DNA of 64,000 nt, from NCBI RefSeq assembly GCF_036507355.1, contig NZ_AP027877.1. The stretch is one strand, 5' to 3'. How positions within the stretch are numbered: the first letter of the stretch is position 1; each line of letters opens with the position of its first letter. This DNA is from Escherichia coli (lineage in GTDB: Bacteria > Pseudomonadota > Gammaproteobacteria > Enterobacterales > Enterobacteriaceae). Positions 19,419 to 22,551 of this stretch are shown here, in pieces. The notes below the pieces were generated by a model that ran no database searches, was not told where the DNA came from, and was given only the letters and a program-made list of their open reading frames with translations. Made by a program: the position numbers and the translations under genes.

Positions 19419-21643
19419 TATCGTTCTGCCGTGAAAAGTGTTTGAATATCATCGCGTAACAGCTGGGCGTCGGTGTAAATCCAGCCGTGAGTCATCACAG
19501 TCTGCTGCAATTGCTGCTGCATCAGCCTGACCACCGATTCATTTTGTTGACGCAGAGCCAGACTTTCGCGTAAACGCGTCTGTAATTCCGTCAAACATGA
19601 AGCGAACTCAGCGAAAAAAGTATTCATGCCTGCCGTAACAGATTCATCGACCTGCTCTGCCAGAACTTTAGCCATTTGTTGGCAATAGAGATCGACTTCT
19701 GCGCTTAATGCTCGTTGCAACACACTGTAATCAACCGTTTCTGTCGGGGATTTCTCATTTCCCCGTCCCCAGTCGGGCTGATTCAACCAGCGCGAAAAAG
19801 TCTCACGCACAACGCCTAAACGCGTGCTCTGCTCGTCCGTTGCTTCCTGGCGCGAAATGACTTCACTGAACAGCTGGCGAGTGTTGAAGTGGGGAACTGC
19901 GCCGTGAAAAACAGGAAAATGAAACCCAGGACGAAACCCTGACTCGCTCAATTCCATTTTGATTTGTTGCTCAATGGGGCGAATAACATCGGTTAACACC
20001 CGGCAAAGGGTGGATTCCAGCTCGGCAAAACGCAGCGTAAAGTCGCGACTGATGGTGTTCTGCGCCGTCTGTAACAGTGTCTCACAGCGGGTACGAATCT
20101 CGCTTAACGGCTCCGAATCATCCTGAAACAACGCGGCTAACTGCGCATTCAGCGCATCTTGCTGTTGACGCAGAAAGAGGTTGGCGGAGGTCAGGGCCAG
20201 CTCGATTTCATGTTTAATCTCGCCGCTCACCTGCGCCTGATTGAGTTGCAATAGCTGCAAACTTTCTTCGACCTGATGGATATTTTGCCGCAATTGTTCA
20301 CAAGCGACGTTTAACCCGTGCGCACGAAAATCCAGGTATTCCCGCGCCTGCTGCGCGTAATTCAACAGTTTATGCGCGGCAGATCGCAGAGCATACAACG
20401 AGGCGTTAGCATAAGCGGCATGAAGCAACGCCTGAATTGGCTGGGCGAACAGCGAATCTTCCCACAACTGATCGGCAGCATGACGAATATGTTCGAGGTC
20501 CGCCAGATCGGCATGACGCCAGCGCCTGCCGAGCGCGGCATGGGCAAAATCTTCCACCCAGCGTTGTTGCTCTGGCGCTGGTAACTTACCGTTGTTGGCT
20601 AACTCATGGCGCGCCCGATTCGCCAGGTAGCCCCACATCGACGACACCGGAAATATCTGCTGTGGCGTAATACAGCCTTTCATCAGCGTTCCGGAAATCA
20701 GTGCCCGCACCTGGTCGGCGTCGTCACTGTTACGATCCTGTTGATCGAACTTATTGACCAGCACATACAGCGGCACCGATTGCCCCACCGCCAAAATCGC
20801 CTCACGGACCTCTTCATCGGAGATCGATTTCAGTTGCGTATAATCCAGCACCGCCAGTACCGCCGAGGCGCGTGCCAGCTGCTGGTTAAGCATTTTTTGC
20901 AGATGCGGTTGCCCGGCTTCATTTGGCCCGGGGGTATCCAGTAACGTCAACTGACCGGGATAACTCTCCAGCCCCGCCAGATGGACAAACTCCACTTCAA
21001 TCACGGGAATATGCTCAATGGCGGCGTAAGCAGAAAAAGGAAAATCGACGTCCAGCGCCTTCGCCAGTCGCACCAAATCATTCAAACTTTTCAGACAATG
21101 AAAAATAGGCTGGGCACCCAGATAATATTTTTCGAAAGCGACGCCATTTTCGATCCGCTGCATAAGCGCACGCATATCTTTATCTATTTCCAGCACATCG
21201 GTCAGATGCTTAATATCGCAATCACGCAGGCGCTGTTGTAATTTTTGAATTAAACAATCGATTGGCGCGACATGTGAAAAATGCAGTACCGGTTCCTTTT
21301 GCCCGGGCGTATGGCGAATAAGCGTCGGCAGGGCAGTCATTGGGCGATTGCGATTAGGCAGAACCTCCGTACCAACAATGGCATTAATGGTGGTTGATTT
21401 CCCTGCTTTCATAGTACCGACAATCGCCAGCACCATTTCCAGTTGGGAAATTTTACGCAACTCATTATTCAGCATCGCGTGACGCTCGGCGATATTAGGC
21501 TGACTCCAGGGTAAAGCCAGTTGTGGCGCATCGTCTCCGGGTACAGAGAGAGGCATTTTTTCCAGTAACTGCAACTGTTGGCGAGAAAGCTGTAACAGGC
21601 GTTCAGCCTCCTGACTTAACTCATACAGGGTCTGTGTGTACAT
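19415..21643 (-). CDS. crfC: Dynamin-like GTPase CrfC (YjdA)
   Basis: 742-aa ORF; P-loop GTMKAGKST near N-terminus; long coiled-coil-rich C-terminal part. Confidence 0.9.
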   Translation of the reverse strand: MYTQTLYELSQEAERLLQLSRQQLQLLEKMPLSVPGDDAPQLALPWSQPNIAERHAMLNNELRKISQLEMVLAIVGTMKAGKSTTINAIVGTEVLPNRNRPMTALPTLIRHTPGQKEPVLHFSHVAPIDCLIQKLQQRLRDCDIKHLTDVLEIDKDMRALMQRIENGVAFEKYYLGAQPIFHCLKSLNDLVRLAKALDVDFPFSAYAAIEHIPVIEVEFVHLAGLESYPGQLTLLDTPGPNEAGQPHLQKMLNQQLARASAVLAVLDYTQLKSISDEEVREAILAVGQSVPLYVLVNKFDQQDRNSDDADQVRALISGTLMKGCITPQQIFPVSSMWGYLANRARHELANNGKLPAPEQQRWVEDFAHAALGRRWRHADLADLEHIRHAADQLWEDSLFAQPIQALLHAAYANASLYALRSAAHKLLNYAQQAREYLDFRAHGLNVACEQLRQNIHQVEESLQLLQLNQAQVSGEIKHEIELALTSANLFLRQQQDALNAQLAALFQDDSEPLSEIRTRCETLLQTAQNTISRDFTLRFAELESTLCRVLTDVIRPIEQQIKMELSESGFRPGFHFPVFHGAVPHFNTRQLFSEVISRQEATDEQSTRLGVVRETFSRWLNQPDWGRGNEKSPTETVDYSVLQRALSAEVDLYCQQMAKVLAEQVDESVTAGMNTFFAEFASCLTELQTRLRESLALRQQNESVVRLMQQQLQQTVMTHGWIYTDAQLLRDDIQTLFTAERY

Positions 21644-22044
21644 AGAAAATTCTTCCTTAAAGCAAATTTTATTACTTTTATTTAGCCAGATTGTTTTTGA
21701 GTTCTGTTTTCGGCTTTTATAATTACTGCAAGAAATAATTTTATATTTAGAGTGTTGTTTTTTATTAGAATAAATAACATCTTCCGATACGTTTAAAACG
21801 TCAGAAAGATAAAAATATCATGTGAATTAAAAAAAGAACAAGTAGAGCATTAACCTTATCTTAAATAATAAATGGAGGCAAAAAGATTATTTTCTTTTTG
21901 CGTTTCCTTTCAAATGAAAACGATCGTCGTCTAAAATCAGCAGTACCCCCGACAAACTCAGGGATTTTGTGTATAATTGCGGCCTTTTTCGGCAATCTGC
22001 CGTTTTTTGGCGCTTTTGCCCTGCTGACTTTTGAGGAAATCCAC

Positions 22045-22380
22045 ATGTCATTACCACACTGCCCAAAATGCAACTCCGAATACACCTACGAAGATAACGG
22101 CATGTACATCTGCCCGGAATGTGCCTACGAATGGAACGACGCAGAACCTGCACAGGAAAGCGATGAGCTGATCGTTAAAGATGCTAACGGCAATCTGCTG
22201 GCTGACGGCGACAGCGTTACCATCATTAAAGATCTGAAGGTGAAAGGTAGCTCTTCGATGCTGAAAATTGGCACCAAAGTGAAAAACATCCGCCTGGTTG
22301 AAGGCGACCATAACATCGATTGCAAAATCGACGGTTTTGGTCCGATGAAACTGAAATCTGAGTTTGTGAAAAAGAACTGA
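22045..22380 (+). CDS. phnA: PhnA (YjdM), zinc-ribbon protein
   Basis: ORF 21898..22380 is over-extended; ATG at 22045 gives 111 aa ([30 protein letters not shown], CxxC...CxxC). Confidence 0.9.
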
Positions 22381-22392
22381 TTGTATTGTGAT

Positions 22393-22551
<159 letters not shown>

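Follow-up and report, generated by a model that had tools for sequence, protein, structure and literature searches.

The 401 bp that separate the divergent genes crfC and yjdM on the Escherichia coli chromosome are best read, from sequence and with a probability of roughly 0.7, as a divergent promoter region of an ordinary kind, together with the untranslated leaders of both genes. Transcription of yjdM(-yjdN) would start near position 21984 on the plus strand, from the sigma70 promoter CCGACA-17-TATAAT, and the 61-nt leader that follows would carry two small hairpins, whose probable role is to protect the mRNA or tune it. For crfC-rdcB, the start would lie near 21846 on the minus strand, with TTGCCT-17-TAAGGT as a weaker promoter of sigma70 type. 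The two promoters would thus stand back-to-back, with about 68 bp between their -35 elements, and the AT-rich 200 bp beside crfC would be transcribed as a long AU-rich leader, whose last ~85 nt are conserved (SD and A/U-rich blocks) and whose middle would be free spacer.

Two points of this reading are modestly new. The predicted crfC promoter is well supported phylogenetically and would imply a long AU-rich leader, and the predicted yjdM leader covaries while lying outside RNA families. What is gained is a set of testable promoter and TSS positions for two genes that have no RefSeq promoter annotation, and otherwise little beyond the annotation. As for the genes themselves, crfC/rdcA feeds the DgcE c-di-GMP biofilm switch, and yjdM encodes a conserved zinc-ribbon protein and is the model locus of REP325.

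The spacer and its composition

The window, i.e. the whole stretch of 64,000 nucleotides that was analysed, holds the spacer at positions 21644-22044. It is bounded by the start codon of crfC at 21643-21641 on the minus strand and by the ATG of yjdM at 22045 on the plus strand. Both genes have synonyms: crfC is also called yjdA and rdcA, and phnA is an old name of yjdM. The K-12 counterpart lies at NC_000913.3 4326735-4327134, where it measures 400 bp. Across the spacer stretch, the DNA of the window is identical (100%) to that of strain PapRG-06-5, and a 601-bp query that spans the spacer is matched over at least 80% of its length at a place in 5404 of 5426 complete E. coli genomes. Between this strain and K-12 MG1655, 8 positions of the spacer differ, including 21671, 21675, 21855, and 21874; the predicted crfC -10 is affected (TAAGGT here, TAATGT in K-12), and two changes fall in the conserved block beside crfC. 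RefSeq annotates no feature inside the spacer, either in the record of this strain or in NC_000913.3.

An earlier note on this DNA had described a 400-bp AT-rich non-coding gap between crfC and phnA, with homopolymer tracts and no credible ORF, and this description holds. The 401 bp have a GC content of 0.31, which falls to 0.237 in the crfC-proximal 257 bp (21644-21900), and among 250-bp windows across the 64 kb (mean 0.53, sd 0.068) the GC minimum starts at 21646. Homopolymers include an A7 at 21829, a T6 at 21758 and another at 22003, besides several 5-nt runs. TpA steps are twice as dense as in the window, and 5 promoter-like matches were counted where shuffles give 1.9 +/- 1.6. None of the ORFs in the spacer is conserved as coding sequence in the orthologous spacers: where such ORFs cluster, they only reflect, in several frames, that the DNA near the yjdM promoter is conserved; the two E. 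coli ORFs of 32 aa and 20 aa have no conserved counterparts; and a 7-codon ORF after an SD-like AAGGT is missing even in E. whittamii. The same note had called the gap unusually long, which is true in part. It is the longest of the four divergent spacers of the window (282, 252, 392, and 401 bp), but it ranks only third among all spacers between annotated genes, after those of 557 and 545 bp, and the nrfA-acs spacer already reaches 392 bp.

In its general organization the region resembles the nrfA-acs (392 bp) and melA-melR (282 bp) regions, which likewise have opposed genes, a shared AT-rich spacer, a -35/-10 pair per strand, and no coding capacity. In the crfC-yjdM spacer, a -35/-10 pair with 17-bp spacing, within the expected 16-18 bp, is present on each strand and directed toward the gene that flanks it there. 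Unlike those divergent regions, its crfC-side leader is predicted to be unusually long (~200 nt here, and 300-360 nt in other genera).

Conservation among Enterobacteriaceae and within E. coli

A scan with the CrfC N-terminus yielded 80 loci from Escherichia, Citrobacter, Enterobacter, Kosakonia, Lelliottia, Leclercia, Cedecea, and other genera. The comparison covered about 75 Enterobacteriaceae loci, and 71 orthologous spacers were aligned. Wherever the positions of yjdM and crfC could both be found, the two are divergent neighbours. Orthologous spacers are 323-612 bp long, reaching ~800-1400 bp in Cedecea, Buttiauxella, and a few Enterobacter-labelled loci, and some of these longest spacers carry an extra gene. 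In Cedecea and a group of Enterobacter sp. (loci L076-L079 and L081 of the collection), an extra gene of ~238 aa lies inside a crfC-yjdM spacer of 1181-1182 bp. All orthologous spacers are less GC-rich than their surroundings. Since the crfC and yjdM flanks themselves have normal GC and a synteny conserved across the family, the flanking genes are long-standing residents and not a foreign island.

Klebsiella (L085) separates the two halves of the region. There, crfC-rdcB is absent, proP stands divergent to yjdM, and the yjdM promoter is kept. The proP-yjdM spacer has a GC content of 0.47 and is not AT-rich; the AT-rich part therefore goes with the crfC side. Outside the core Enterobacteriaceae the context of yjdM is not fixed, the gene following miaB in Serratia (L086) and a LacI-family gene in Proteus (L088).

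The alignment of the 71 spacers resolves three conserved zones and a variable centre. The same pattern recurs within E. coli, where the gradient of constraint fits promoter and leader versus free spacer. Next to yjdM, the 100 nt of predicted promoter and leader at 21944-22043 have an identity of at least 99% in 5410 of 5414 E. coli records, a level that a yjdM coding block reaches in only 4258 of 5411. For the crfC-proximal ~85 nt, this level is found in 3147 of 5403 records, and for a crfC coding block in 575 of 5406, the leader end being the more constrained of the two. The central 100 nt are the most polymorphic: 367 of 5277 records reach 99% identity there, and 662 are at 90-95%.

Nucleoid-associated proteins

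The composition of the spacer is also what an alternative reading would emphasize, namely that the AT-rich DNA mainly binds H-NS, Fis, and possibly IHF, which would silence or modulate crfC and/or yjdM. The earlier note had named H-NS/Fis-bound regulatory DNA as a candidate. Such a role could coexist with the promoters and leaders proposed here, and we regard it as possible but rather unlikely. No stretch of the window is more AT-rich than the 257 bp of 23.7% GC, the TpA density is doubled, and an excess of promoter-like matches over shuffles is typical of AT-rich H-NS targets. However, of the H-NS nucleation motifs, TCGATAAATT is unmatched in the spacer and TCGATATATT has one match there, with 2 mismatches. 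The Fis consensus GNNNAWWWWWTNNNC has no match in the spacer, the IHF consensus WATCAANNNNTTR has none even at 1 mismatch, and the AT-rich half lacks an AA/TT periodicity of 10-11 bp (power at 10.5 bp, 0.07). An RpoD SELEX table marks H-NS at nearby spacers, and the crfC-yjdM spacer is not among them (PMC3946193). Compared by sequence only, the spacer shares very low GC and many TpA steps with H-NS-silenced regions, but it differs from them in lacking a nucleation motif and a foreign-gene context, its synteny being conserved. What speaks for H-NS or Fis at this place is the composition only.

The predicted yjdM promoter and leader

The predicted yjdM core promoter spans 21949-21977 on the plus strand, with a -35 element CCGACA at 21949-21954, a 17-bp spacing, and a -10 element TATAAT at 21972-21977. 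It is the best plus-strand PWM match (10.3 bits), it agrees with the consensus at 10 of 12 positions, and CCGACA-17-TATAAT or its TATACT variant tops the yjdM-sense matches in 41 of the 71 orthologous spacers. The near-consensus -10 that the earlier note had placed at about 22000, upstream of phnA, is thus a real TATAAT at a corrected position. Its suggestion of regulatory DNA is also borne out, in that this hexamer serves as the -10 in a promoter element that Enterobacteriaceae have kept, even Klebsiella, where crfC is lacking. From this promoter, the TSS of yjdM is predicted at ~21984 (+/-2), or about NC_000913.3 4326795. A published RpoD-holoenzyme SELEX study lists a site in the yjdN/yjdM spacer and does not mention the yjdM/yjdA spacer (PMC3946193).

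The predicted leader, 61 nt at 21984-22044 on the plus strand, comprises two hairpins and an SD. Hairpin 1, CGGCA-AUC-UGCCG, lies at 21990-22002 and is followed by U6 at 22003-22008; hairpin 2, GGC-GCUUUU-GCC, lies at 22009-22020; and the SD, GAGGA, lies at 22033-22037. Covariation was assessed on 42 distinct yjdM leaders, with a MAFFT alignment that was not fitted to structure, a hand-specified structure, and 500 shuffles. Paired cells amount to 75.4%, against 67.2 +/- 1.2 in the shuffles, and the covariation score to 0.255, against 0.140; for both measures, 0 of 500 shuffles were as high. As a control, sliding the pairing partners by 1-3 columns gave at most 50% paired. Compensatory changes were found in 9 of the 11 pairs, and folds computed sequence by sequence give the two hairpins in most genera and keep them in Klebsiella and Cronobacter. 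The fold of the E. coli leader is not significantly more stable than shuffles (z = -1.37), RNAalifold on the raw alignment of the leaders returned no structure, and an Rfam scan of the leader matched no family.

Hairpin 1 with its U6 scores as terminator-like and, in Escherichia and Citrobacter, looks like a weak intrinsic terminator. Leaders of the Enterobacter type have an interrupted U-run, and for this reason a stabilizing or tuning role of the hairpins seems more likely than conserved attenuation. Leaders of the ompA type, with a 5'-terminal stem-loop, stabilize mRNAs. The yjdM leader resembles them in having a small hairpin ~7 nt from its predicted 5' end, conserved by covariation, but it differs in having two hairpins, each followed by a U-rich run.

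Published transcript data touch on this locus at a few points. The term-seq supplement text of one study (PMC7815308), which may be incomplete, gives no 3' ends at the coordinates of the spacer. A preprint (bioRxiv 10.64898/2026.03.23.713779) handles yjdM-yjdN as an operon with REP325 between the two genes, presents RNA-seq coverage over 4,326,900-4,325,100, and remarks that yjdM is an intrinsically stable transcript. In a SMRT-Cappable-seq supplement, a per-gene two-column table has '1 1' for both b4108 and b4109 (PMC6131387), which we take as one operon variant each in two conditions.

Three minor observations concern yjdM and its surroundings. First, the 557-bp yjdM-yjdN spacer contains REP325/naRNA4 repeats (Rfam RF02564) at 22398-22543, with 102 bits and a weaker second copy; this REP cluster, REP325, is a studied model of a terminator and stabilizer of yjdM mRNA. 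Second, a TTG-started in-frame extension of yjdM at 21898-22380 (160 aa) runs over the promoter and leader; database YjdM entries of 123-190 aa are common, against the usual 111 aa, and resemble over-extended gene calls. Third, a 17-nt inverted repeat (82% complementary) pairs 21927-21943 with 22021-22037, its 3' arm covering the yjdM SD. It is relevant only to a transcript that starts further upstream, because its 5' arm precedes the predicted yjdM TSS.

The predicted crfC promoter

The core promoter predicted for crfC (rdcA) lies at 21853-21881 of the minus strand, with a -35 element TTGCCT at 21881-21876, a 17-bp spacing, and a -10 element TAAGGT at 21858-21853. It is the best minus-strand PWM match, with 11.1 bits against an AT-rich background. 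The pattern TTGnnn, exactly 17 bp, and TA[A/T]GGT is the top crfC-sense match in 58 of the 71 spacers and the second in 5 more. The hexamers and their spacing are conserved and the sequence between them is not, while the distances from the element to both genes vary by more than 100 bp (from ~200 to ~360 nt to the crfC ATG). This combination of fixed hexamers and spacing with free intervening sequence and free gene distances argues for a core promoter and against a factor site placed with respect to another promoter. Since its -10 (TAAGGT, or TAATGT in K-12) fits just 3 of 6 consensus positions, the promoter may depend on an activator, or the main start may be a different one. From the element, the TSS of crfC is predicted at ~21846 (+/-3), or about NC_000913.3 4326933.

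A different reading places the crfC start near its ATG, within the blocks at 21660-21727. The AT-rich DNA would then be an untranscribed UP-element-like or activator region, and TTGCCT-17-TAAGGT would be something else, e.g. a factor site. The strongest cross-genus conservation on the crfC side indeed falls in the last 85 bp, a modest TTTCCA-18-GAAACT match of ~5 bits occurs near crfC in some genera, and TAAAAU and TATAAA-like hexamers are present there. Nevertheless, no sigma70-like promoter is positionally conserved in the last 150 nt before crfC, where the E. coli matches reach at most 3.5 bits, and the distal element is conserved in the fashion of a promoter, as set out above. A start near the ATG is therefore judged unlikely.

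Several candidate sites around this promoter were considered and rejected. BasR/PmrA boxes follow the pattern TTAAnnTT-N3-TTAAnnTT. A sequence of this kind, TTAACCTT-ATC-TTAAATAA at 21851-21869, looked good in E. coli and lies 5 kb from basRS, but in other genera its TTAA cores read TCAC and CGAA/TGAA. The conserved core of this BasR-like site is the -10 of the crfC promoter, and no literature link of BasR to crfC or yjdM was found. A CRP half-site TGTGA at 21821 lacks its right half and is unconserved, and an NsrR/PurR-like palindrome, ACGTTTAAAACGT at 21790-21802, is specific to E. coli. Apart from these, a perfect 9-6-9 inverted repeat, GCAAAAAGA-TTATTT-TCTTTTTGC, at 21878-21901 overlaps the predicted crfC -35 and occurs in Escherichia only; it could be an operator, or a chance product of AT-rich DNA.

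The predicted crfC leader

From the distal promoter, the crfC leader would extend over 21644-21846 on the minus strand (~203 nt), taking in the bulk of the AT-rich stretch. Its predicted length is ~200-235 nt in Escherichia, C. koseri, and Pluralibacter; most other genera have ~305-360 nt. The greater part of the AT-rich stretch is thus probably a transcribed leader of crfC and not silent spacer. This is a point that the earlier note overlooked, since the bulk of the AT-rich DNA lies downstream of a conserved, predicted crfC-sense promoter.

The part nearest to crfC, at 21646-21727 on the minus strand, consists of conserved blocks: an SD, AAGGAAG (21658-21652), GGCUAAAUAAAAGUAAUAAAAUUUGC, and GUAAUUAUAAAAGCCGAAAA. 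Column identity in these blocks is 80-99% over the 71 spacers from many genera, and they are found in Cronobacter too. Folding covered this conserved part and gave no consensus secondary structure. The ~85 nt are most likely conserved for translation initiation or post-transcriptional control, but the blocks may also be sites in the DNA and not elements of the RNA.

The central segment, at 21728-21852, is AT-rich and fast-evolving, with no specific element detected. It can be aligned only poorly even to E. whittamii, and other genera have an extra 130-200 bp there. Given its polymorphism within E. coli, the centre of the predicted leader looks like unconstrained spacer that evolves about neutrally.

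The larger spacers of the other genera deserve a brief description. In Citrobacter, Enterobacter, Kosakonia, and others (loci L005-L070), they measure 526-614 bp, and the Escherichia spacer is a shortened version. The additional 130-200 bp of those genera are conserved sequence with the palindromes AGGATATATCCT, TGACAGG-N4/5-TGTCA, and TAAGCATCGCTTA, all lacking in E. coli. These palindromes may be operator sites that were lost in Escherichia.

A possible role of the leaders as regulatory RNAs

A more ambitious reading would make both leaders regulatory RNAs in their own right, the yjdM leader as an attenuator or protein site (conceivably for YjdM, a zinc-ribbon protein) and the crfC leader as a post-transcriptional control point of crfC/rdcA. 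We consider this improbable, although its consequences are worth stating. RdcA (YjdA) and RdcB (YjcZ) activate the diguanylate cyclase DgcE, and their operon is described as belonging to the flagellar regulon (PMC6510439). If the reading were true, the 200-360-nt crfC leader, dependent on Hfq, ProQ, or an sRNA, or on S1, would couple the RdcA-RdcB-DgcE c-di-GMP switch to motility status, and control through this leader would account for the FliA-dependence of yjdA RNA, described below, with no FliA site in the spacer. The control of RdcAB would then gain a post-transcriptional layer; nothing found demands it. An (ARN)5 Hfq-type motif in the crfC leader of this strain is broken in K-12 by two changes and therefore counts as speculation only.

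A possible small RNA

The suggestion in the earlier note of an unannotated small RNA, taken here as a spacer gene that has a promoter and a terminator to itself, found no support in the comparison and is very improbable. It could draw on the several promoter-like sites of the spacer, on two terminator-like hairpins of the plus strand (21878-21901, and 21990-22002 with a T-run), and on a weak match to STnc410 at 21814-21904 on the minus strand. However, the first hairpin is AT-rich, has a poor T-run, and is specific to Escherichia, the second sits at +7 of the predicted yjdM leader, and the minus strand of the spacer has no terminator at all. No promoter and intrinsic terminator were found that bound a unit of 50-300 nt in the spacer. 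Conservation is lowest at the centre of the spacer, whether genera or E. coli records are compared. Neither the spacer nor 19 orthologous loci have an Rfam match at threshold, and the possibly incomplete supplement text cited above (PMC7815308) is likewise silent on 3' ends here. The STnc410 match scores 15.4 bits against a gathering score of 50, finds no counterpart in the 19 orthologous loci, and was set aside as chance.

FliA and the regulation of crfC

Equally improbable is a sigma28 (FliA) class-3 promoter upstream of crfC/yjdA, which had been predicted from expression data before 2014. The sequence GCCGAAAA at 21714-21707 (minus strand) fits the sigma28 -10 GCCGATAA at 7 of 8 positions and is fairly conserved, and yjdA RNA drops about 10-fold, from 111 to 11, in a fliA mutant (PMC4183435). 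On the other hand, the corresponding -35 position reads TCTTGCAG, with 2 of 8 matches to TAAAGTTT, and the full pattern TAAAGTTT-N11-GCCGATAA is absent from the spacer even when 3 mismatches are allowed. FliA ChIP-seq located the site inside yjdA, where it drives yjcZ, and the upstream prediction was called incorrect (PMC4183435); RpoF SELEX likewise maps inside yjdA (PMC5493296). The published 28-nt FliA motif for yjcZ/rdcB has an exact copy at 19643-19670 on the minus strand, inside crfC. The FliA-dependent yjcZ promoter thus belongs to the same operon as crfC, but it lies inside that gene, 2 kb from the spacer. The regulation of crfC is not fully accounted for by the divergent promoters proposed here, because yjdA RNA drops in the fliA mutant with no FliA site in the spacer.

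Elsewhere in the window, a sigma28-like sequence, TAAAGTTT-N11-GACGATTA (2 mismatches), lies at 35244-35270 on the plus strand, upstream of yjcS and outside the FliA ChIP-seq list. It is probably a chance match, 13 of 100 shuffles giving at least 2 matches.
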